Positions 46,591-58,698 of a DNA stretch of 64,000 nt are shown piece by piece. The stretch lies in contig CBDATS010000008.1 of assembly GCA_965200245.1 (NCBI GenBank), positions 224,001 to 288,000 of the forward strand. The letters run 5' to 3'. Both the position numbers and the translations under genes were made by a program. Under the pieces are notes generated by a model. It did no database searches. It was not told the DNA's origin and was given only the letters and a program-made list of their open reading frames with translations. Position 1 is the first letter of the stretch; every line of letters begins with the position of its first letter. The stretch comes from a bacterium. GTDB lineage: Bacteria; UBA8248.

Positions 46591-47685
46591 ATGGCACAGA
46601 CGACACGGATGTTGGACCACGAAGTCGATTTGGTGGAGTACTACTACGAACAGGGTTTCACGGACGGGCTTCCCGTCGTACCGCCCACGCCGGAGAAGAT
46701 AGATGCAACCGTCGCGGCACTGGGAGGTGATAAGGACTTCATCGAATGCCGCGTGCCCCCACGCTGGGGCAACCTCACGAGAGAGGTGCTTGCGATCAAC
46801 ATGGTGATGGCGGGCTGCAAGGTGGAATACGCGTCCATTGTTCGTGCGGCGATGCTCGCGCTTTGCGACCCGCACTTCAACCTGAACGGCGTGCAAGCCA
46901 CCACCCACATGGCATGTCCGCTCATCGTGGTGAACGGACCGATTCGAAACGAGGTCGGCATGAACGCGGGCTGCAACGTGTTCGGCTCGGGCAACCGCGC
47001 GAACGCGACGATAGGCCGCGCGGTACGGATGATTCTCCTGAACGTGGGCGGTGCGTGGCCAGGCGATCTTGACAAGAGTACGCTGGGCTGTCCCACAAAA
47101 TACACCTACTGCATCGCGGAGAACGAAGAGGCGAGCCCTTGGGCGCCCTATCACGTGGAACAAGGCTACGCGCCCGAGGATTCCACCGTCTTTGCCATCG
47201 CTGCCGAGGCACCGCACAGTGTGACGAACCACATCGCGGACGATCCCGAGGGAATCCTCGACAGTATCTGCTCGGCGATGAGCACGATTGCGCACAACAA
47301 TTCAGTGAGCAGCGGATCGTGCGCCGTCGTCATTAGCCCAGAACATGGGGCGACCATCAGTGCCAGGAACTGGACGCGAAACGACGTGAAAAGCTACCTC
47401 TGGATGCATACCAGGAACACGTTTGCCGATATCTCGTTCAACCACCGTTACGGCAAGGTTTACAACCGCAACATTCCCAAGTGGTACAGACGCGCGCCGG
47501 AGGAGAGAATTCCCATCGTGCCGAGCCCCGAGAATATCCACCTGTTCGTAGCGGGCGGGGATGCGGGTCGTTTTTCGGCCTTCATCCCCGGCTGGGGCCA
47601 CATGACAAATCCGGTGCTCCGGGCAATCGACGGCAAGGTGCTCGAAGGCGGCCCCGTCTGCGTGGACGGCACCTGTCTGCTTTAG
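46591..47685 (+). CDS. UGSC-associated conserved protein (large partner)
   Basis: GFTDGLPVVPPT, AINMVMAGC, NRANATIGRA, IAENEEASPW; this family is typically next to or fused with UGSC domains. Confidence 0.8.
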   Translation: MAQTTRMLDHEVDLVEYYYEQGFTDGLPVVPPTPEKIDATVAALGGDKDFIECRVPPRWGNLTREVLAINMVMAGCKVEYASIVRAAMLALCDPHFNLNGVQATTHMACPLIVVNGPIRNEVGMNAGCNVFGSGNRANATIGRAVRMILLNVGGAWPGDLDKSTLGCPTKYTYCIAENEEASPWAPYHVEQGYAPEDSTVFAIAAEAPHSVTNHIADDPEGILDSICSAMSTIAHNNSVSSGSCAVVISPEHGATISARNWTRNDVKSYLWMHTRNTFADISFNHRYGKVYNRNIPKWYRRAPEERIPIVPSPENIHLFVAGGDAGRFSAFIPGWGHMTNPVLRAIDGKVLEGGPVCVDGTCLL

Positions 47686-47712
47686 AATTTTGAGAAGAAC
47701 GGGAGAAAACCA

Positions 47713-48255
47713 ATGAGTGAAGTCATCACGGGTCAGATCGTCTATGACCCCCGGGGGGTGGTAGAGGCAGAAACCCAGCCCACCGCCGAGCGTGTCGGGG
47801 ACCTGAAGGGCTTGAAACTCGGCGTCCTGGATAACACGAAGTGGAACGGGCGCAAGCTGCTCGAGAAGACCACGGCGCTGATGGAGGCGGAGGGCCCCTT
47901 CGCCGAGGTGCGCTACTACAAGAAAGAGAGCTTTTCGAAGAACGCGGCACCCGATTTGATTGCGCAAATCGTGGAGGAGAACGATGTCGTCCTGACGGCG
48001 ATTGGCGACTGAGGCTCCTGCACATCGTGCTGTATGCACGATGCGGTCTCCCTGGAGGAAAAGGGTGTCCCCACCGCCGTTATAGTGACCGAGGTGTTCC
48101 TCCACGAAGCCCGCGTGCAAAGGGCGGCTCTGGGGATGAACGACCTGACCCCGGTGGTTATCCAGCACCCCCTGAGCACGCTCTCGGAAGAGGAAATCTC
48201 CGCGCGCGCGGGTGATGCGGCCCGCCAAGCGGTGAAGGTTCTGCTCAAAGGCTAG
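47713..48255 (+). CDS. UGSC-family selenoprotein (Sec at TGA 48010-48012)
   Basis: ORFs 47713-48012 and 48034-48255 are in one frame: ..LTAIGD-U-GSCTSCCMHDAVSLEEKGVPTAVIVT..IQHPL. Confidence 0.9.
48023..48043 (+). promoter_or_regulatory. Candidate bacterial SECIS hairpin
   Basis: Perfect stem CATCGTGC/GCACGATG with loop TGTAT starting about 19 nt after UGA. Confidence 0.7.
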
Positions 48256-48266
48256 TACATCTATTT

Positions 48267-49499
48267 ATGACAAAGCCCTTGGAAGGTATCCGCGTCCTCG
48301 ACCTGACGCAGTTTCTCTCGGGTCCGCAGGCCACACTTTTCTTGGCGGGCCTGGGAGCCGAGGTCATCCGAATCGACAATCCTGCCACTGGCGACCCGGT
48401 GGCCTATTCCCCTCCCTTCATCGGCGAGAAGGGCGTCTCTTACCATCCCCAAACGGATGAGGACATGGGGATGGCCTATTTGAAGCGTACGCGCCAGAAA
48501 AAGGCGGTCACCCTGAACATCAAGGATCCACGCGGCCTCGAGATGTTCTATGGCCTCGTCGCTCGATCCGACATCTTGGTGGAGAACTTCTCCGTCGGCG
48601 TCACGAAAAGGCTCAAAATCGACTACGAGACGCTTCACGCCCGAAAACCCTCCTTGGTGTATTGTTCCATCACGGGTTATGGACAGACGGGACCTGACTC
48701 CGGCCTGAAGGGTTACGACGCTGTCTCCCAGGCCGCTTCGGGCCTGATGAACCTCACGGGCTTTCCCGACGGTCCGCCCACCAAGGCGGGTTCGGCCCTT
48801 GGCGACAGTATGGGAGGCACGTTCGCCTTCGGCGCCATCATGACTGCGCTCTTTCACCGTGAGCGCACAGGCAAAGGTCAGCATATTGACATTTCGATGA
48901 TCGACTGCATCTTCTCGCTCATCTTCGATGAGCCGATGGATTGTTACGAACGGCTGGGCCTCCCGCCGCGTATCGGCAACCGCATCATGCGGCTCGCGCC
49001 GTTCAATGCCTACGAGACGAAAGACGGCTGGGTAATCGTCGCTTCGGGCACCAACGCGCATTGGCACAACATACTGCACGGCATCGAACGCACCGACCTG
49101 ATAGGCGATGAACGATACGAGGACATGAGCCGGCGCGTGAGCAAGGTAGAGGAAGTCGACGCAATCATCAACGAATGGACTAGGCGGCGCGAGACGAAAG
49201 AGGCAGTCTCCTCACTGCGTGCGCACGACGTTATCTGCGGGCCGGTGAACAACATCGACGACATCCTCGCATGGCCCCATATGCAAGAGCGCGAGATGAT
49301 TGTCGATCTCGAACACCCCACCCTGGGGACGCTCGCCGGTGCGAAAGCCCCCGGTTTTCCCTTCAAATTCAGCGAAATCAAGGGTAGCTACGAGGCCTCC
49401 GCCCCGCTCGTGGGGCAGCACAACGCGGAAATCCTGGGCGGATTGCTCGGCGTGTCCGACGCAGAATTGAAGGGACTGGAAGACGCAGGTGTAATCTAG
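48267..49499 (+). CDS. CoA-transferase family III (CaiB/BaiF)
   Basis: PLEGIRVLDLT, LVENF, CSITGYGQTGP, GYDAVSQA, TGKGQHIDISM. Confidence 0.93.
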   Translation: MTKPLEGIRVLDLTQFLSGPQATLFLAGLGAEVIRIDNPATGDPVAYSPPFIGEKGVSYHPQTDEDMGMAYLKRTRQKKAVTLNIKDPRGLEMFYGLVARSDILVENFSVGVTKRLKIDYETLHARKPSLVYCSITGYGQTGPDSGLKGYDAVSQAASGLMNLTGFPDGPPTKAGSALGDSMGGTFAFGAIMTALFHRERTGKGQHIDISMIDCIFSLIFDEPMDCYERLGLPPRIGNRIMRLAPFNAYETKDGWVIVASGTNAHWHNILHGIERTDLIGDERYEDMSRRVSKVEEVDAIINEWTRRRETKEAVSSLRAHDVICGPVNNIDDILAWPHMQEREMIVDLEHPTLGTLAGAKAPGFPFKFSEIKGSYEASAPLVGQHNAEILGGLLGVSDAELKGLEDAGVI

Positions 49500-49534: not shown

Positions 49535-50368
49535 ATGAGACGCGGTATCTTCATGCTGATGATGGTTTGTTTCCTCCTTTTGGGGTGCGCCGGAGAAGTC
49601 AACCTCTCGGGAGGGATCAATCCCAAAACGCTCGATCTGGCCGAAGAGGCGCGACGCACGTTCGATGCCGCCTACGTCATGCTCGAGATAAATGGCGAGT
49701 TCATCGGTGGCAGGATGGATGAGAGGTTCGTCCAGGTAAAACTCGCGGGATTAAAGAAAAAACGCCGCACCGTGATTTTCATTCACGGCTGCTCGGGACT
49801 AGGACGCGGGAACTTGCACTATATGCGGATTCTCGCACGGGCGGGCTACGCTGTCATTGCGCCAGACAGCTTCGCACGCCGCTACCGGCCTGAGACGTGC
49901 GATCCTGCGCGACATCGAGGCATAGAAGGTGCGCCGCACAGGCGCGTGGGGCGGATGCGCCAGAAGGAGATTCATCACGCGGCGTACCGGGTTCGGCATA
50001 TCCGATGGGTGGACAGGCAAAACCTCTTTCTGATGGGGCACAGCCAGGGAGGAACCGCAGCCGCTTCCTATGGGGGAGATGAGTTCGGTGCTCACGTCAT
50101 CTCGGGTTCCACTTGCGGGCGCGGCGTTCGAGTGCCTAAAGCGATTCCTGTTCTTGTGCTGTACTCGAAAGGGGATCCCTGGCGGCGTGGGAGGCCCGCC
50201 GATAGATGCCTGCGCAAGGCGAAAGAACGTGGTGTGAACATGGAGTTTCATCTCTTCGAGGGTCGCGCGCACAACTTCTCACGCAACAGGCGAGCCCGTC
50301 GGCTGATTCTCGATTTTTTGAAGCGATACCGCAGAGCGGAAACGATAATGATACAGAGCGCGCTCTAG
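49535..50368 (+). CDS. Dienelactone hydrolase-like alpha/beta hydrolase, probable lipoprotein
   Basis: LLLGC lipobox, HGCSG, GHSQGG, C-terminal His. Confidence 0.8.
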   Translation: MRRGIFMLMMVCFLLLGCAGEVNLSGGINPKTLDLAEEARRTFDAAYVMLEINGEFIGGRMDERFVQVKLAGLKKKRRTVIFIHGCSGLGRGNLHYMRILARAGYAVIAPDSFARRYRPETCDPARHRGIEGAPHRRVGRMRQKEIHHAAYRVRHIRWVDRQNLFLMGHSQGGTAAASYGGDEFGAHVISGSTCGRGVRVPKAIPVLVLYSKGDPWRRGRPADRCLRKAKERGVNMEFHLFEGRAHNFSRNRRARRLILDFLKRYRRAETIMIQSAL

Positions 50369-50461: not shown

Positions 50462-51448
50462 ATGCGAATCTGTACGATCAGTCTGGGAGGTGAGGCGCGC
50501 ATCGGCGTCTTGTTCGGGGAGAAAATCGCCGATCTCAAGCTGGCCTATGCCTTGTCGCTGGATGAGGTATCCGCTGCCGAGGCTATTGACCGCGTCGAGG
50601 CCGAGGTTCCCGATGATTGTGAGGAGTTTATCGAGGACCTCGAGTTGAATCGCCCCTTGGCGGAGGAAGCTCTTCAAGTGCTCGAAAATCATGGAAACAA
50701 GCAAGAACCGGTTCGCTTCGACGGGATGCAGGTGGTTTATGAACCCGGTGAAGTCGAAATCCTTCCTCCGGTCGTCCCGGGCACGCTGTTCTGCATGGCG
50801 AGGAACTACGTGGCGCATGCCGCCGAGATGGCGCGCACTCAGGTGGACGACTTTAAGGAAGAACTTCCGCTCTATTGTTTCCTGAAACCTGCGACGTGCG
50901 TGAGTGGCCCCTATGACGATGTGCCTGTCTATCCCTCGATGGAAAAACTCGACTATGAACTCGAACTCGGCGTGCTCATCGGGCAGGGTGGCAAGAACAT
51001 TCCCGTGGAGCGCGCCATGGACCATGTGGGCGGCTACACCTTGTTCAACGACATGAGCGATCGTACGACGCTCAATATGGGCAAGTTCATCGACTGGTAT
51101 GCCATGAAGGCTCCCGACGGTTTCGGCCCCATCGGCCCCTATATCCTCTTGCCCGAAGAAGGGCTCGACCCCCACGATTTACGGCTCAAGCTCTGGGTGA
51201 ACGGCGAACTTAGGCAAGACGCGACCACGGGTGATATGGTCTGGCGCATCGTCGAGCAGGTGTCCTATCTATCGAGTATCACAACACTGCGAACGGGCGA
51301 CATCATCGGCACCGGATCGCCTGCAGGCAATGCCGCTTCTTGGGGAGAATATCTCCAGCCAGGGGATCTGATAGAGGGTGAAATCGAAAGCATCGGACGC
51401 CAAGCTTTCCGCATCAGGATCGAGAACCCCGAGTATGTCCCGGGCTAG
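50462..51448 (+). CDS. Fumarylacetoacetate hydrolase family protein
   Basis: NYVAH, LDYELELGV, FNDMSDR, GDIIGTGSPAG. Confidence 0.92.
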   Translation: MRICTISLGGEARIGVLFGEKIADLKLAYALSLDEVSAAEAIDRVEAEVPDDCEEFIEDLELNRPLAEEALQVLENHGNKQEPVRFDGMQVVYEPGEVEILPPVVPGTLFCMARNYVAHAAEMARTQVDDFKEELPLYCFLKPATCVSGPYDDVPVYPSMEKLDYELELGVLIGQGGKNIPVERAMDHVGGYTLFNDMSDRTTLNMGKFIDWYAMKAPDGFGPIGPYILLPEEGLDPHDLRLKLWVNGELRQDATTGDMVWRIVEQVSYLSSITTLRTGDIIGTGSPAGNAASWGEYLQPGDLIEGEIESIGRQAFRIRIENPEYVPG

Positions 51449-51542: not shown

Positions 51543-52910
51543 ATGAACTCACCAATGGCCGAAGCCGAATCACTCCGTATGATGGACAAGGAGCACGTCT
51601 GGCATCCGCTCTTGAACCATTTCGGAATGGAGGAGAATCCCCTCGATGTCGTGGTCAAGGCCGAAGGATCAACCATCCAGGACGCTTCCGGCAGGGAATA
51701 CATTGACGCCATGGCCGGGCTTTGGTGCGTGAACATCGGTTACGGGCGCGACGAGGTGGCCCGTGCGGCCTACGAGCAGATGCTCGAGTTGTCCTACTAT
51801 CCGCTCACGCAGGTAAACCCGCCGGCTGCCAGACTCGCCGAGCGTCTTGCCTCCTTGCTGCCCAAGGGAGTCGAGCGTGTCTGGTTCGTTAACTCGGGTT
51901 CCGAGGCGGTGGATACCGCTATCAAGATAGCCCGTGCCTATGGACGTCTGAACGGCGGGAAGCGGTACAAGATCATCGCCCGCCACCAGGGATATCATGG
52001 AGCGACAATTGGCGGGGCGAGCCTCACCGGACAGACGCTCAGGCGCGCGATGTTCGAACCGCTCCTGCCGGGCGTGATTCACGTAAGTGCACCCTATTTC
52101 TACCGCAGCAACGCAGATACTGAAGAAGAACTCGCCTCCCGCTGCGCGGACGAGCTGGATGAGGTCATCCGCTATGAGGATCCCGGGACTGTGGCGGCGT
52201 TCATCGCGGAGCCTGTCATCGGTGGCGGCGGGGTGATTCCGCCTCCCGCGGATTACCTGAAACGCATGCGTGAGGTATGCAGAAACCACGGCGTGTTGTT
52301 CATCGCCGATGAGGTTATCACCGGCTTCGGGCGCACGGGAGTGCTGTTCGCTTCCGACTTGTATGAGATCGAACCGGATATCATGACGATGGCCAAGGGG
52401 CTGAGCAGCGCCTATCTGCCTATCGGGGCGACGGCGACCACGAGCGAAATTTTCGAGGCCCTGAACGCCGAGGGCGATTCAGGCTTCCTGCAAATCAACA
52501 CTTACGGAGGACACCCCGCGGCCTGTGCAGCGTCGCTCAAGAATCTGGAAATCATGATGGATGAGGAGTTGCCCGCGCGAGGTGCCAAGGTGGGCACTTA
52601 TCTCGGCGGGCTATTGAAGAAACTTTCCGACATTCCACTGGTGGGCGACGTGCGGGGGGTGGGCCTCATCTGGGGCGTCGAGTTGGTAGAAGAGAGTGGT
52701 GCGCCGCTTCCCACGGCGGCCACGGCGAAGGTGCTGGCCTACGCGAAAGAAGCGGGTGTCATTTTCGGCAAGAACGCAGGTATCGCAGCGGGCCCCTCGA
52801 ACACCGTAACCATCAGCCCGCCGCTGGTCTTTACAGAAGAAGAAGCCGAGCGCGCTGCCTCCGCTCTCGACGGTGCCCTGCGCCGCGTCCAGGCGGAGAG
52901 TGGCGTGTGA
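51543..52910 (+). CDS. Class III PLP aminotransferase (omega-amino acid/taurine-type)
   Basis: DAMAGLWCVNIGYGR, NSGSEA, FIADEVITGFGRTG, MAKGL, TYGGHP. Confidence 0.93.
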   Translation: MNSPMAEAESLRMMDKEHVWHPLLNHFGMEENPLDVVVKAEGSTIQDASGREYIDAMAGLWCVNIGYGRDEVARAAYEQMLELSYYPLTQVNPPAARLAERLASLLPKGVERVWFVNSGSEAVDTAIKIARAYGRLNGGKRYKIIARHQGYHGATIGGASLTGQTLRRAMFEPLLPGVIHVSAPYFYRSNADTEEELASRCADELDEVIRYEDPGTVAAFIAEPVIGGGGVIPPPADYLKRMREVCRNHGVLFIADEVITGFGRTGVLFASDLYEIEPDIMTMAKGLSSAYLPIGATATTSEIFEALNAEGDSGFLQINTYGGHPAACAASLKNLEIMMDEELPARGAKVGTYLGGLLKKLSDIPLVGDVRGVGLIWGVELVEESGAPLPTAATAKVLAYAKEAGVIFGKNAGIAAGPSNTVTISPPLVFTEEEAERAASALDGALRRVQAESGV

Positions 52911-52962
52911 AACGATAGCTGATAATCCAATCTTATTCATCATCCTGTAGGGAGGTTGTAAT

Positions 52963-53625
52963 ATGTCCAACATCACTATGCTCGACATCGAGGACCTGAA
53001 AAAGACGAAACTCGCTCCTTTCCTCAACAAGGCGCTAAAACACCGAGCGCCCGACCCTGCCTTTCACGCCATGCAGGGCCACAACGAGGATCTGGCGAAG
53101 TCGATGTATCTCGCCTGGGGAACGGTATTCAACACCGGTGTCATCGACCACAGGCTCAAGGAAATCATCCGCGTTCAGCTATCGCGCCGGGCCTTTTGCA
53201 ACTACTGAGGGAACGTACGCTCTGCTTCGGCGAAGCAGGCAGGTTTGACCGAGGAGATGATTGACGAGGGTATCGATAACTGGCGCGAGAGCGATCTTTT
53301 CACCGAAGCTGAGAAACTGGTCTTGGAATACAGCGAACTCATGGATTCGGAACCCGAGAAAATTGATGAGGCCTTCTATGCGAGGCTGCGTGAATGTTAC
53401 TCGGATGAGGAAATCGTGGAACTCGGCTCTTTCATCGGCTTCAACGTGGGCTACCATACCTTTTTCCGGACGCTCGATTTCTATCCCATGTTCTCCCCCG
53501 ACGGCAGGCTCGTGAGTCAGGAGGAATCGCGCCGCATCTACGGCGATTGCCCCGTCTCGCACTTGAGCGGTCCGCTGGCGCGCGCGATCGAAGAGGGTGA
53601 GGCGCAACAGACCAACGGCAGCTAG
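52963..53625 (+). CDS. AhpD/carboxymuconolactone decarboxylase-like selenoprotein (CxxU, Sec at TGA 53206-53208)
   Basis: ORFs 52963-53208 and 53245-53625 are in one frame: LKEIIRVQLSRRAF-CNYU-GNVRSASAKQAGLTEE..YSDEEIVEL; aligns end to end with the uninterrupted downstream paralog. Confidence 0.9.
53219..53240 (+). promoter_or_regulatory. Candidate bacterial SECIS hairpin
   Basis: GC-(bulged T)-CTGCTTC/GAAGCAG-GC stem with a GGC loop about 21 nt after UGA. Confidence 0.7.
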
Positions 53626-53634
53626 GAGGACGCC

Positions 53635-54240
53635 ATGCCGATCATCGAGCCGCTCGAACCCGAAGGAATTGAAGAGAAGGACTGGAAACGTATTATGGAG
53701 CGCACCACCGAGACGCAGGCACCCGATGCGCTCTTCTCGCGCATCATGGCCCATGCACCCGGCTACGCCGGCCCCCTGCACGACGCCATGCACCGTTCCC
53801 ATGTCATGGGCGGGGTGGATCACAAACTCAAGGAGATGATCCGCATTCAACTCGCCAGGACCGCGCAGGATACCTACTTCTCCAACCTGCGCTCCGAGCA
53901 GGCGAAAAAAGAGGGCCTGACGGAGGAGCGCATCGAAGCTGCCTGCGGGAATTTCGAGAACGACGCACAGTTCACCGACGCCGAGAAATGGGCACTCCGG
54001 TTTTCCTGCTGGATGTATCGCGACGCCGCGAGGCTGGACAGGGAATTCTACGATGAGGGCAAAAAACACTTCACAGAGGCCCAGATCATGGAGATCGGCG
54101 CGATGGTGGCACTTCACTACGGCCTTCAGGTTTTCATGCGCACGCTCAAGGCCTATCCCTTACATGACCCCGAGGGCAACCCCGTATCACAGGAACAATC
54201 TGAGCAGATTTACGGAAAAGACGTGCCTACACCCTCATGA
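53635..54240 (+). CDS. AhpD/CMD-like protein lacking the CxxC/U motif
   Basis: VDHKLKEMIRIQLARTAQ-DTYF-SNLRS..FTEAQIMEI; paralog of the upstream gene; GGAGG RBS. Confidence 0.85.
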   Translation: MPIIEPLEPEGIEEKDWKRIMERTTETQAPDALFSRIMAHAPGYAGPLHDAMHRSHVMGGVDHKLKEMIRIQLARTAQDTYFSNLRSEQAKKEGLTEERIEAACGNFENDAQFTDAEKWALRFSCWMYRDAARLDREFYDEGKKHFTEAQIMEIGAMVALHYGLQVFMRTLKAYPLHDPEGNPVSQEQSEQIYGKDVPTPS

Positions 54241-54690: not shown

Positions 54691-54966
54691 TGGGTTGTTT
54701 TTCGCGTTGAGTACAGGGCGGCGTGGTGAAAAAATCCTTGAATTACTTCCTCTCCCCATGTTCTAATGAATTTACAATCATCACAAAAGCGAATGCCCAT
54801 GTTTGGAGGCGCTTACGTCAACTCACCATTCGCCTTGAACTGGCAGGAATATGGCCTCTCTTTGCCTTGCCTGTTTCTCTGGGAGTCGTTGCATGCTGTC
54901 TATATGCGCAATCTTTTCGGGAACAAACGAATTTCAACCGGATTTCACAACAATGGGAATGAGATC

Positions 54967-56373
54967 ATGAAAAACCATCAACAGACTTCTCTTCCATGGT
55001 TTGCTATGTGGGGAGTGTTTCTCGCCTTCGTTGCTCTTGCGTTCACGGCGAGCGGGGCGGAGGCGGCAGTGGCCGTCGAGGGCCGGGTCGCAAATGACAA
55101 ATACATATTCAACACCTTCTTTTTGCTGATCTGTGGCGTGCTCATCATGTGGATGTGCGCGGGCTTCACAATGCTCGAGTCGGGTTCGGTACGCACGAAG
55201 AACGCCTCGGTGATTTGCCTGAAGAACATCGGCCTCTACGCCATCGCGGGGATCATGTTCTACATCATCGGCTATAACCTGATGTTTGTGGACGTTGGCG
55301 GCTGGATAGGCTCCGTCAAACTCTTGTTCCGGCCTTCTGGCGATGAGGTCGCCCTCTTGGCCGGGAATGAAAAGGCGGGCACCGCCATAATCGGGACCGA
55401 CTATGCCAGCATATCCTTCTGGTTTTTTCAGATGACTTTCGTGGCGACTACCGCTTCCATCGTCTCTGGTGCCCTCGCCGAGCGTGTGAAGCTGTGGACA
55501 TTCTTTGTTTTCATTGCAATCCTCACCGGCATCATCTATCCGCTGGTGGGTGCCTGGACGTGGGGCGGGGGCTGGCTCACCAAACTGGGTTTCAGCGATT
55601 TCGCTGGTTCCACTATCGTTCACTCGACCGGAGGATGGGCGGCGCTCGCGGGAGTCATCGTGGTAGGCGCGCGTCGCGGGAAGTTTCGCGAGGATGGGAG
55701 CGTCAAGCCCACGCCGCCCTCGAACGTCCCGCTGGTCACTCTCGGGGCCTTCATCCTTTGGTTTGGCTGGTTCGGGTTCAATGGCGGCTCCATGCTGGTG
55801 CTCAAGGGATCGGTCGATGCGTTGACGATGAGCAACGTGCTGGTCAGCACCAACCTCGCAGCTGCGGCAGGTTGCGTCGCCGTCTTGTTCACCGCAAATT
55901 CCATCTTCGGGCGTGTGGACTTACTCGCGGTGCTGAACGGCGCTATCGGCGGCCTCGTCGCCATCACGGCCGGACCGAACATCGTTGAATACCATTGGGC
56001 AGTCATCATAGGTGCCATTGGCGGCTTGGTGTGCGCGTACGGTTTGAAGATATTGGAGAACCTGAAGATAGATGACGTCGTGGGCGCGATTCCCGCGCAC
56101 CTGTTCGCTGGAATCTGGGGGACACTTGCGGTCTGTATCGCAGCGGGCGGTAGCCTCTCCGCGCAAATAATCGGCATTGTGGCGATTGGCTTGTTCGTGT
56201 TCGTGATCTCCTACGTCGTATGGTTGGTTCTGGACAAGACGATGGGCGTGCGGGTGACGGCTTCCGCGGAGGACCATGGGCAGGATTCGGCAGAACTCGG
56301 CATCGAGGCCTATCCCGAATTCGTGCTCATGCCCGATGAGGACGACGCGCACTTGGCAAAAGGAACTCGATAG
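54967..56373 (+). CDS. amtB: Ammonium transporter
   Basis: GFTMLESG, SGALAER, DFAGSTIVH, WFGWFGFNGGS, IDDVVGAIPAH; both pore His present. Confidence 0.95.
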   Translation: MKNHQQTSLPWFAMWGVFLAFVALAFTASGAEAAVAVEGRVANDKYIFNTFFLLICGVLIMWMCAGFTMLESGSVRTKNASVICLKNIGLYAIAGIMFYIIGYNLMFVDVGGWIGSVKLLFRPSGDEVALLAGNEKAGTAIIGTDYASISFWFFQMTFVATTASIVSGALAERVKLWTFFVFIAILTGIIYPLVGAWTWGGGWLTKLGFSDFAGSTIVHSTGGWAALAGVIVVGARRGKFREDGSVKPTPPSNVPLVTLGAFILWFGWFGFNGGSMLVLKGSVDALTMSNVLVSTNLAAAAGCVAVLFTANSIFGRVDLLAVLNGAIGGLVAITAGPNIVEYHWAVIIGAIGGLVCAYGLKILENLKIDDVVGAIPAHLFAGIWGTLAVCIAAGGSLSAQIIGIVAIGLFVFVISYVVWLVLDKTMGVRVTASAEDHGQDSAELGIEAYPEFVLMPDEDDAHLAKGTR

Positions 56374-57572: not shown

Positions 57573-57870
57573 GGCACATCTTTTTTCGGTCGTGCCCGGT
57601 GAAGGTGGCTCGAAAAAATTCCTTTCCCATATATCGCAGAGCGGGACGTTCCATATTCATTCTGGCGCAAAAGGATTCCTTTTTGAAGTGTGCCGCGAAA
57701 TTTCGTCTCTGACGATAAGGAAGGTCTTCCGGTGAGCAAGAAGATGCAAGCCGCTATGACCCCGCGGATACTTTGCAAATCGGGACGAATCATTGTATAC
57801 ACAATCTCCCTGACCCAACTCGTCTGCCATCGCGGGACGGCTCGACAAAGAGCCGGGCGGAGGAGTCTGG

Positions 57871-58698
57871 ATGATCAACATCCCGCTGGAGGCAATTCCT
57901 GTGGCGCAAGCAGTATGCAACGGAGTCCAGATTTCCTACGATGATAACGGCATGAACACCCCGACACCCCCCATCGTCTTTATACATGGGCACGGCTTGA
58001 ATCGCTCGATGTGGGAGCGCCAGAAACTCGCGCTCCGGGGTACGCACCGTGTCCTCACGTATGACCTGAGAGGACATGGTCGATCGGAGAACCCCCCCAC
58101 GGGCTACAGCCGGGACGAAGAGGTCGCGGACCTCCTCGACTTGCTCGAACACACCCGTATCACCAGAGCCCACCTCGTGGGTCTGAGCCGCGGCGCCGGA
58201 ATCGCGCTCGGCTTCGCCGCGGCGCACCCGGACAAAACGGCGTCGGTCATCGCGATGGGCCCGGGTTACGACTACCCCCGCCTGATGCCCGAGTTTGCTG
58301 ACCAAAGGCTCCAGACCATGGCCACCCTGAGGGCCGAGGGACTGCGAGCGGCCAAGGACTACTGGGCAGATTTGCCCATCTTCGCCTCTGTGCGGGAAAA
58401 CGAGGACGCCGCCGATTGGGCAGAGGACATGCTCCTGACTTACACAGGCGCGCATTGGCTCGACCAGAATCCTCCACAGGACACGTCGCTCGCGAACATC
58501 GCCGCAAAGATCACAGCCCCCACACTCCTCCTGGTGGGCGAGAAGGATTTGCCTGGCTTCCATGAATGTGTGGACGAACTGGCGGCGAAGATTGAAGGCG
58601 CAGAGAAAATGGTGGTCTCTGGTGTGGGACAACTGATGGCGATCGAGGACATCGATACGGTGACGGAGCACATCTCCGCGTTTTTGGCGAAGCAATAA
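57871..58698 (+). CDS. Alpha/beta hydrolase-fold protein
   Basis: FIHGHG, YDLRGHGRS, GLSRG, PTLLLVGEKD. Confidence 0.88.
   Translation: MINIPLEAIPVAQAVCNGVQISYDDNGMNTPTPPIVFIHGHGLNRSMWERQKLALRGTHRVLTYDLRGHGRSENPPTGYSRDEEVADLLDLLEHTRITRAHLVGLSRGAGIALGFAAAHPDKTASVIAMGPGYDYPRLMPEFADQRLQTMATLRAEGLRAAKDYWADLPIFASVRENEDAADWAEDMLLTYTGAHWLDQNPPQDTSLANIAAKITAPTLLLVGEKDLPGFHECVDELAAKIEGAEKMVVSGVGQLMAIEDIDTVTEHISAFLAKQ

Follow-up and report, generated by a model that had tools for sequence, protein, structure and literature searches.

A selenocysteine-containing AhpD/CMD-fold protein and its adjacent redox-dead paralog as a candidate two-subunit selenoenzyme in the UBA8248 lineage

Introduction

Selenoproteins of the CMD fold have been described since the Sargasso Sea survey of 2005. 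AhpD-like proteins with a CxxU motif (COG2128/YciW; U is selenocysteine, Sec) and selenoproteins with a CMD domain are ranked among the commonest marine selenoproteins (PMC1088965, PMC2398784, PMC9312934, PMC13188914). For the family AhpD-like 1, the Global Ocean Sampling (GOS) table counts 299 Sec against 902 Cys forms (PMC2398784). Metagenome-assembled genomes (MAGs) placed under GTDB UBA8248 and labelled Nitrospinota or Nitrospinaceae belong to the most selenoprotein-rich bacteria, with 48-54 genes, according to PMC13326102. Here we analyse two adjacent genes, A and B, in a stretch of 64,000 nucleotides (nt) from a bacterium of the GTDB lineage UBA8248 (assembly GCA_965200245.1, contig CBDATS010000008.1, positions 224,001 to 288,000 of the forward strand), which is called the window in the following. 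Gene A encodes a CMD/AhpD-fold protein with an in-frame TGA in its redox motif and gene B encodes a paralog without the redox residues. We regard them as the probable two subunits of one selenoenzyme. An earlier reading made from the letters of this DNA without database searches, hereafter the sequence-only reading, had already proposed a hetero-oligomer of this kind.

A comparison with the catalogued AhpD-like CxxU selenoproteins shows the same CMD/AhpD fold, Sec as the second residue of the motif, a selenocysteine insertion sequence (SECIS) hairpin just 3', a G in the hairpin loop and a mainly marine distribution. A has a CxxU motif and CMD homology and may belong to the AhpD-like CxxU family (COG2128). 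A selenoprotein of the CxxU AhpD-like class is already known, and A is not new in this respect. However, the catalogued family has many Cys homologs, whereas no Cys ortholog of A was found and B is present at every assessable locus. The obligate redox-dead partner and the lack of a Cys form among the orthologs found appear to be the new elements. No Sec-containing CMD protein paired with or fused to a redox-dead paralog was found in the main text of the literature covered, the supplementary sequence lists of the catalogues lying outside this coverage.

The catalytic residues of AhpD form a relay of Glu, CxxC and His. Mycobacterium-type AhpD and PA0269 share with A the helical CMD fold and the Glu 12 residues before the first Cys, and the C-A-Y-C motif of PA0269 has its Tyr in common with the C-N-Y-U motif of A. 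They differ from A by the His after the motif, in place of which A has Arg86. Furthermore, AhpD and PA0269 are homo-oligomers with identical chains in each entry, whereas A and B would be a pair of an active and an inactive paralog. A second relative is the tetrabromopyrrole debrominase Bmp8 (6ohi, 6ohj), a protein of similar length (195 amino acids, aa) with two Cys aligned to positions 79 and 82 of A and two chains per entry. Unlike A, Bmp8 has Cys instead of Sec and a His at +3, and it is a single gene product of a halogenated natural-product cluster.

Sequence and fold of the A and B proteins

The frame of gene A runs from ATG 52963 through TGA 53206-53208 to TAG 53623-53625, which gives a protein of 220 aa with the motif C79-N-Y-U82-G-N-V-R86-S when TGA is read as U. 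Gene B starts at 53635, 9 nt past the stop of gene A, and its product of 201 aa has D79-T-Y-F82-S-N-L-R86-S in the same place. The two proteins can be aligned end to end with 35% identity (E 2e-41). The sequence-only reading had reported the read-through of TGA 53206 in a CNYU motif with a hairpin just 3', the full-length alignment to a neighbouring gene with DTYF for CxxU, and the missing AhpD His in GNVRS and SNLRS; all of its sequence statements are correct.

Both proteins pass the gathering threshold (23 bits) of the Pfam CMD model (PF02627), A with 29.5 bits and B marginally with 23.8 bits. The residues K66, E67, R70, Y81, R86 and S87 are common to A and B. E67 stands 12 residues before C79, the same spacing as that of the PA0269 Glu, and presumably occupies the position equivalent to the proton-relay Glu of AhpD. 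The His after CxxC is absent from both proteins, which have Arg86 at +4 and Val/Leu85 at +3. Elsewhere this His is found at +4 in PA0269-type proteins and at +3 in Bmp8. In the genome of the window, at least seven more CMD paralogs carry a TGA in the form C-x-x-U-x-x-H-N, with His at +3. These open reading frames (ORFs), all outside the window, lie at C5:15142-15615, C5:562980-563273, C5:510386-510772, C5:686717-687106, C4:461460-461771, C4:1107409-1107612 and C2:110802-111326 (contig:positions), and an eighth TGA-containing CMD match is found at C8:206041-206349. Related genomes hold 8-13 CMD matches each, mostly with TGA. In this lineage, selenoproteins of the CMD fold have undergone an expansion.

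We surveyed more distant relatives with a B-profile search, in which 114 domains of the 150 best cluster representatives cover the motif. The motif is CxxC in 52 of them, DxxF in 40 and CxxW in 3. Arg is found at +4 in 40 of the 52 CxxC relatives and in 38 of the 40 DxxF relatives, and His at +4 in 4 of the 52 CxxC relatives. Since Arg is so widespread, A and B are members of a broader C-x-[YF]-[CU]-x-x-x-R-S subfamily and the trait is not peculiar to the pair. The earlier proposal that the enzyme is not a plain peroxidase stays plausible, because the relay His is missing, but the Arg in its place lends the pair no special status.

Both A and B stay below the cut-off of every curated NCBIfam model. 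The best-scoring one for A, B and the Cys relatives is NF053654 (YciW-related (seleno)protein). It gives A 68.5 bits and B 31.8 bits, and since its cut-off is 310, neither protein is a member. TIGR01926 (peroxidase-related enzyme) gives 38.8 bits for A against a cut-off of 81.8, and TIGR00778 (AhpD core) has no match in A or B at E <= 0.01. Homologs are named 'alkylhydroperoxidase family enzyme' at JGI, and a search of the ESM Atlas with B returned unnamed CMD clusters only. Against solved structures, the combined A and B profile matches Bmp8 best (6ohi, E 4.4e-13), followed by PA0269 (1.2e-12). For the Cys relative P0168 the best solved match is PA0269 (1e-10), and no close structure of the CxxC...R subfamily was found among the solved structures.

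Evidence for selenocysteine at the in-frame TGA

Conservation of the TGA was followed in three sets of sequences, which overlap and are not independent. The first set holds the best 80 of 399 related stretches found in a scan with one genome per species; the record labels of these 80 loci are Nitrospinota, Tectomicrobia, Rhodospirillales, Acidimicrobiia, SAR324, Chloroflexota, Anaerolineales, Chthoniobacterales and Hyphomicrobiales. The same codon is TGA within the motif C[NR]YUGNVRS at all 80 loci. Exactly one TGA is also found in 29/29 A orthologs from 41 related genomes, down to 46% identity, and in 43/43 A-type matches from a 51-genome sample of the window's phylum. C79 and U82 are invariant in the 30 aligned A proteins.

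The genome (3.68 Mb, 15 contigs) holds the complete set of sel genes that the sequence-only reading had named for checking. selA adjoins selB, selD is present, and one tRNA-Sec is found, which is the sole tRNA with a tca anticodon in the genome. The selD gene (G000:C8:72779-73741, minus strand, outside the window) has one in-frame TGA itself, so that selenophosphate synthetase would also be a selenoprotein.

In bacteria, the SECIS element is a hairpin shortly after UGA at an expected spacing. Downstream of the TGA of gene A we find the hairpin CTGCTTC-GGC-GAAGCAG (53222-53238). Guanosines in the SECIS loop are mentioned in a figure legend of PMC1088965. Among 65 distinct sequences, 98.9% of the cells in the stem alignment are paired. 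Two pairs change in a compensatory manner: pair 18-32 is UA in 43 sequences, CG in 21 and UG in 1, and pair 23-27 is CG in 64 and UA in 1. Furthermore, the third positions of the stem and loop codons 88-91 (GCT TCG GCG AAG) are identical at all 80 loci, while at the other invariant residues a third-position entropy below 0.1 bit is found in 0 of 55 cases, with a median of 1.35.

The Cys forms expected of a Sec residue are found at a distance. Cys is aligned with U82 in 52 of the 114 motif-covering domains, all of them from more distant relatives outside the A clade, which answers the earlier suggestion to look for Cys at the U position. No Cys form of A itself is present among the orthologs found (80 loci, and at least 120 database matches listed). 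Among 21 database proteins that we fetched, 7 span the site with an A-type motif, and all 7 have W at the TGA position. The cluster of one W-bearing protein also holds ten members of 81 aa that terminate at the TGA, which indicates that W comes from gene calls reading TGA as a sense codon. In public records, A (the P0004 cluster, matches P0011-P0122) appears as 'hypothetical protein' pieces of 81 aa and 121-151 aa, or at full length with W on short contigs.

Contigs from four RNA libraries of one study span both the TGA and the A/B junction with zero differences, so the TGA is no assembly error. The sel machinery, the conservation of the TGA, the covariation and frozen sites of the hairpin and the Cys in distant relatives all point to a Sec codon. 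The TGA of gene A is almost certainly decoded as selenocysteine and A would be a genuine selenoprotein.

Pairing of A with a redox-dead paralog

Gene B lies directly 3' of gene A in 77 of the 80 loci, and the three exceptions are contig ends within ~260 nt of the A stop. The pairing with a DTYF-type paralog that the sequence-only reading had named for checking is thus seen wherever it can be assessed. The distance from the A stop to the B start ranges from -4 to 49 nt, with several overlaps including -1 and -4 nt. B is the sole constant companion of A, and the neighbour analysis gave no other common partner. Orthologs of A from different phyla share 66-97% identity.

Natural fusions of the two genes are also found. 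A SAR324 record has a single ORF of 426 aa in which A, including U82, is joined through a linker of ~50 residues to a domain with G-D-P-Y-F. Among the 120 database matches listed, 13 proteins have a length of 297-371 aa. We fetched 11 of these, and all 11 consist of the post-TGA part of A, a low-complexity linker and a D-x-x-F B-type domain; their source names include Betaproteobacteria and SAR324. In fusions and overlaps the order is always A then B. No match is longer than 385 aa, which fits fusions that all carry the TGA and is weak evidence against any full-length A-B fusion containing Cys. A protein of different composition, P0064 (181 aa, on a 10.9-kb contig), is A-like in its first ~70 residues and B-like from LKEIIR on, with G-D-S-Y-F at the site. 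It could be a recombinant of the tandem paralogs with the Sec site removed, or an assembly chimera.

A quick maximum-likelihood tree, whose search was unfinished, was calculated with 28 A rows and 23 B rows. The A clade has a support of 96 and the B clade of 100. Together they form a clade with a support of 94, which is nested inside the CxxU relatives, and the sub-clades of A and B match each other. The tree suggests that a gene with Sec or Cys was duplicated once, long ago, and that B then lost its two redox residues and stayed with A from that time on; this agrees with the loss of the redox site from B that the sequence-only reading had put forward. Within the genus, A has a ratio of nonsynonymous to synonymous substitution rates (dN/dS) of 0.056 and B one of 0.136. 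All 23 B proteins have D79 and Y81, and at least 90% of them have F82. With this dN/dS value and the conserved D-x-Y-F site, B is not a decaying gene.

A candidate two-subunit selenoenzyme and alternative explanations

The constant adjacency, the stop/start overlaps, the natural A-B fusions and the purifying selection on B together suggest a heteromer, and we consider it probable on these genomic grounds that A and B are a two-gene cassette for two subunits of one AhpD/CMD-fold selenoenzyme. UGA 53206 is almost certainly read as Sec under the direction of the hairpin. B is an ancient duplicate in which Cys was changed to Asp and Sec to Phe, while the shared residues and purifying selection were retained. 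The two proteins would form a pseudo-symmetric 1:1 dimer, or a ring of such dimers, replacing the homo-oligomers of their relatives, with one redox pocket and one redox-dead pocket. The selenolate of U82 may attack an oxidised or electrophilic substrate, and C79 may resolve the intermediate to a selenenylsulfide that a cellular thiol system would re-reduce. E67 would take the place of the relay Glu of AhpD, with Arg86 in place of the relay His, and B may supply a second non-catalytic pocket or a scaffold. The invariant Lys/Arg cluster hints at an anionic small molecule as substrate or partner; the odds of any particular substrate are low. In a bolder form, the pair would be an obligate heterodimer whose Sec site is completed or gated by B, and Sec would be irreplaceable for the reductive cleavage of a carbon-heteroatom (halogen, sulfur, nitrogen) bond of an anionic metabolite. 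The enzyme would then be a bacterial AhpD-fold counterpart of the deiodinases or of Bmp8, carried on a mobile cassette in marine catabolic operons. We think this bolder form quite unlikely.

Several observations weigh against the two-subunit selenoenzyme. The folding energy of the hairpin is ordinary when compared with shuffled sequences (z -0.3 and -0.7), and a search of Rfam at E <= 10 gave chance-level matches only and no SECIS family. Because single-sequence folding does not separate the hairpin from the shuffles, the case for it is based on the comparative data. The contigs of the RNA libraries fall short of proving transcription. The tree is rooted on three Sec paralogs of the same genome with long branches. 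The single-copy distant relatives L033 and L034, which fall outside the A+B clade, keep the TGA and have no B, so the fold can function without a partner. Adjacency and fusion also fit two enzymes working in sequence. In addition, the substrate cannot be read from the context, as the neighbours differ between lineages.

In a rival organisation, A and B would be separate homo-oligomers, A a redox selenoenzyme and B a non-redox CMD enzyme (e.g. a decarboxylase or isomerase) or a binding protein, acting sequentially or independently and kept together only by tandem duplication. This agrees with the solved CMD relatives, which are deposited as homo-oligomers of 2, 6, 9 or 12 identical chains per entry, with the two Sec relatives that occur without B, and with the strongly conserved D-x-Y-F site that B has of its own. 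However, B is adjacent in 77/77 assessable loci across phyla while all other neighbours vary, and overlaps and fusions recur with A always before B. Sequential enzymes can be fused, but this is less common among paralogs of an oligomeric fold, and we consider separate homo-oligomers unlikely. An ordinary AhpD-type antioxidant module, which re-reduces a peroxiredoxin or scavenges peroxides next to merely incidental catabolic neighbours, seems similarly improbable to us. In its favour are the fold, the CxxC/U motif accompanied by the relay Glu, and the peroxidase-related nature of the nearest NCBIfam models. In one Acidimicrobiia locus, the gene immediately before the cassette codes for a protein that has a peroxiredoxin/ResA-like domain. 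Neighbouring genes for Prx-like and AhpD-like selenoproteins are also mentioned in the literature (PMC2398784, PMC13188914). On the other side, the relay His and a TIGR00778 match are missing, the 81 tabulated contexts show no regular peroxiredoxin neighbour, and the cassette forms part of catabolic operons that run on its own strand. Furthermore, A has no Cys form among the orthologs found, whereas antioxidant selenoprotein families are usually rich in Cys forms, according to the GOS table.

Sec-dependent deiodinases are proposed to act by attack on a halogen. The pair could likewise be a reductive bond-cleaving enzyme whose selenolate attacks a halogen or other heteroatom of a small metabolite, in the manner put forward for the debrominase Bmp8, itself of the CMD fold. 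Bmp8 is a CMD homolog that dehalogenates via oxidation of its Cys to a disulfide, according to PMC5577590 and PMC7918430. It is the top solved-structure match, with two Cys aligned to 79 and 82, Sec is strictly kept in A, and the records of many carriers bear labels of marine or similar environmental MAGs. But AhpD-like PA0269 scores almost equally well with the pair and better than Bmp8 against P0168, so no specific kinship to Bmp8 can be claimed and the similarity is a lead only. Halogenase or bmp-type neighbours are absent from the contexts examined, and the His of Bmp8 at +3 is absent from A. We rate this cleavage as very unlikely. The TGA might finally be a true stop, with A broken or split into two genes of 81 and ~137 aa, or be read as an ordinary amino acid. 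The split or W-bearing public gene calls and the lack of a SECIS in Rfam would suit this explanation. It is hardly credible given the same-codon TGA in every ortholog, the strong purifying selection on both halves, the conserved hairpin and the full Sec machinery of the genome. An ordinary sense codon is further contradicted by gene B and the upstream aminotransferase gene, both of which terminate in TGA, and by the tRNA-Sec as the only tRNA with the tca anticodon.

We know of no AhpD-like CxxU protein with a known substrate, despite the marine abundance of these proteins. The A clade offers an unusually clean handle on this problem, with Sec in every ortholog found, high conservation and a conserved partner that is fused in some lineages. 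If A and B form one enzyme, it would be to our knowledge the first heteromer of an active and an inactive paralog described in the CMD/AhpD fold, and a defined two-gene target for expression, structure determination and substrate screening. The family is invisible in current annotation, since A is split or given W at the TGA and no curated model names A or B.

Genomic neighbourhood

The features of the locus are listed in Table 1. In the window, A and B terminate a same-strand run that starts with the CoA-transferase III gene. Promoter and terminator scans of the locus gave results at or below chance, and the cassette is not marked by a GC anomaly.

Table 1. Positions of genes A and B, their sequence elements and neighbouring genes in the window
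Feature	Position	Strand	Remarks
CoA-transferase III	48267-49499	+	Upstream, same strand; conserved only in related lineages
Dienelactone-hydrolase-like protein	49535-50368	+	Upstream, same strand; conserved only in related lineages
FAA-hydrolase family protein	50462-51448	+	Upstream, same strand; conserved only in related lineages
Class III aminotransferase	51543-52910	+	Directly upstream of A; conserved only in related lineages
Ribosome-binding site of gene A, GGGAGG	52950..52955	+	7 nt 5' of ATG; read from sequence
Gene A, predicted 220-aa CMD/AhpD-fold selenoprotein, one TGA read through	52963..53625	+	Orthologs with the same single TGA
Redox motif codons TGC-AAC-TAC-TGA (C79-N-Y-U82)	53197..53208	+	Predicted Sec codon is TGA 53206-53208
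SECIS-type hairpin, stem of 7 base pairs, GGC loop, 13 nt past TGA	53222..53238	+	Covariation, frozen synonymous sites, alignment
Ribosome-binding site of gene B, AGGAGG	53624..53629	+	Overlaps gene A TAG stop 53623-53625; read from sequence
Gene B, 201-aa CMD-fold paralog without redox residues	53635..54240	+	Alignment to A, Pfam, dN/dS 0.136
Former redox site of gene B, D79-T-Y-F82	53869..53880	+	Translation, B-protein alignment
Ammonium transporter	54766..56373	+	525 nt 3' of B; neighbour in the window's lineage only

The ammonium transporter ORF encodes 535 aa and its Pfam domain begins only at residue 119; either the protein has a genuine N-terminal extension or its start was called too early. 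For two ORFs on the minus strand of the window, 47302-48228 (308 aa) and 57790-58695 (301 aa), Pfam gives no match at E <= 1e-4. The latter overlaps an alpha/beta-hydrolase ORF on the plus strand and is probably no gene.

The sequence-only reading had tied the pair to amine catabolism through the upstream class III aminotransferase. Upstream sequence of at least 1.5 kb is available in 71 of the 80 loci, and the aminotransferase adjoins A in 21 of the 80 and lies within 2.2 kb in 3 more. Together these are L037-L057 plus L097, L107 and L113, and the 21 loci with an adjoining aminotransferase come from Nitrospinota/Tectomicrobia-type records and three others. As the adjacency is local to some lineages and other lineages have other operons, we reject amine catabolism with the aminotransferase as a general rule. 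The catabolic operon that holds the cassette varies between lineages, and the aminotransferase is thus a local neighbour and not a fixed partner. The A-B pair resembles a unit that was set into a range of operons for small-molecule catabolism.

In the Rhodospirillales-labelled loci, A and B follow genes for an SDR, an HMGL protein similar to isopropylmalate/homocitrate synthases and a cupin, and are followed by a lactate/oxalate-type MFS transporter. Other loci have an Abhydrolase_3 esterase, a distant CoA-transferase III, or a zinc alcohol dehydrogenase with an amine-oxidase-like flavoprotein, and further loci a creatinase-like peptidase, a hydantoinase or DUF1989. At the Acidimicrobiia-labelled locus L085:3922-7938, two genes precede the cassette, one for a molybdopterin S/N-oxide reductase of the bisC family and one for a protein of 465 aa that includes a peroxiredoxin/ResA-like domain. 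In contrast to the catabolic surroundings found elsewhere, this context has a redox character. A DUF1989 protein stands beside the cassette in another family of the phylum (L030:6957-7625, L032:10959-11561 and L034:8644-9246, the last being a single-copy relative). It resembles urea-amidolyase-associated proteins and part of a trimethylamine N-oxide demethylase model.

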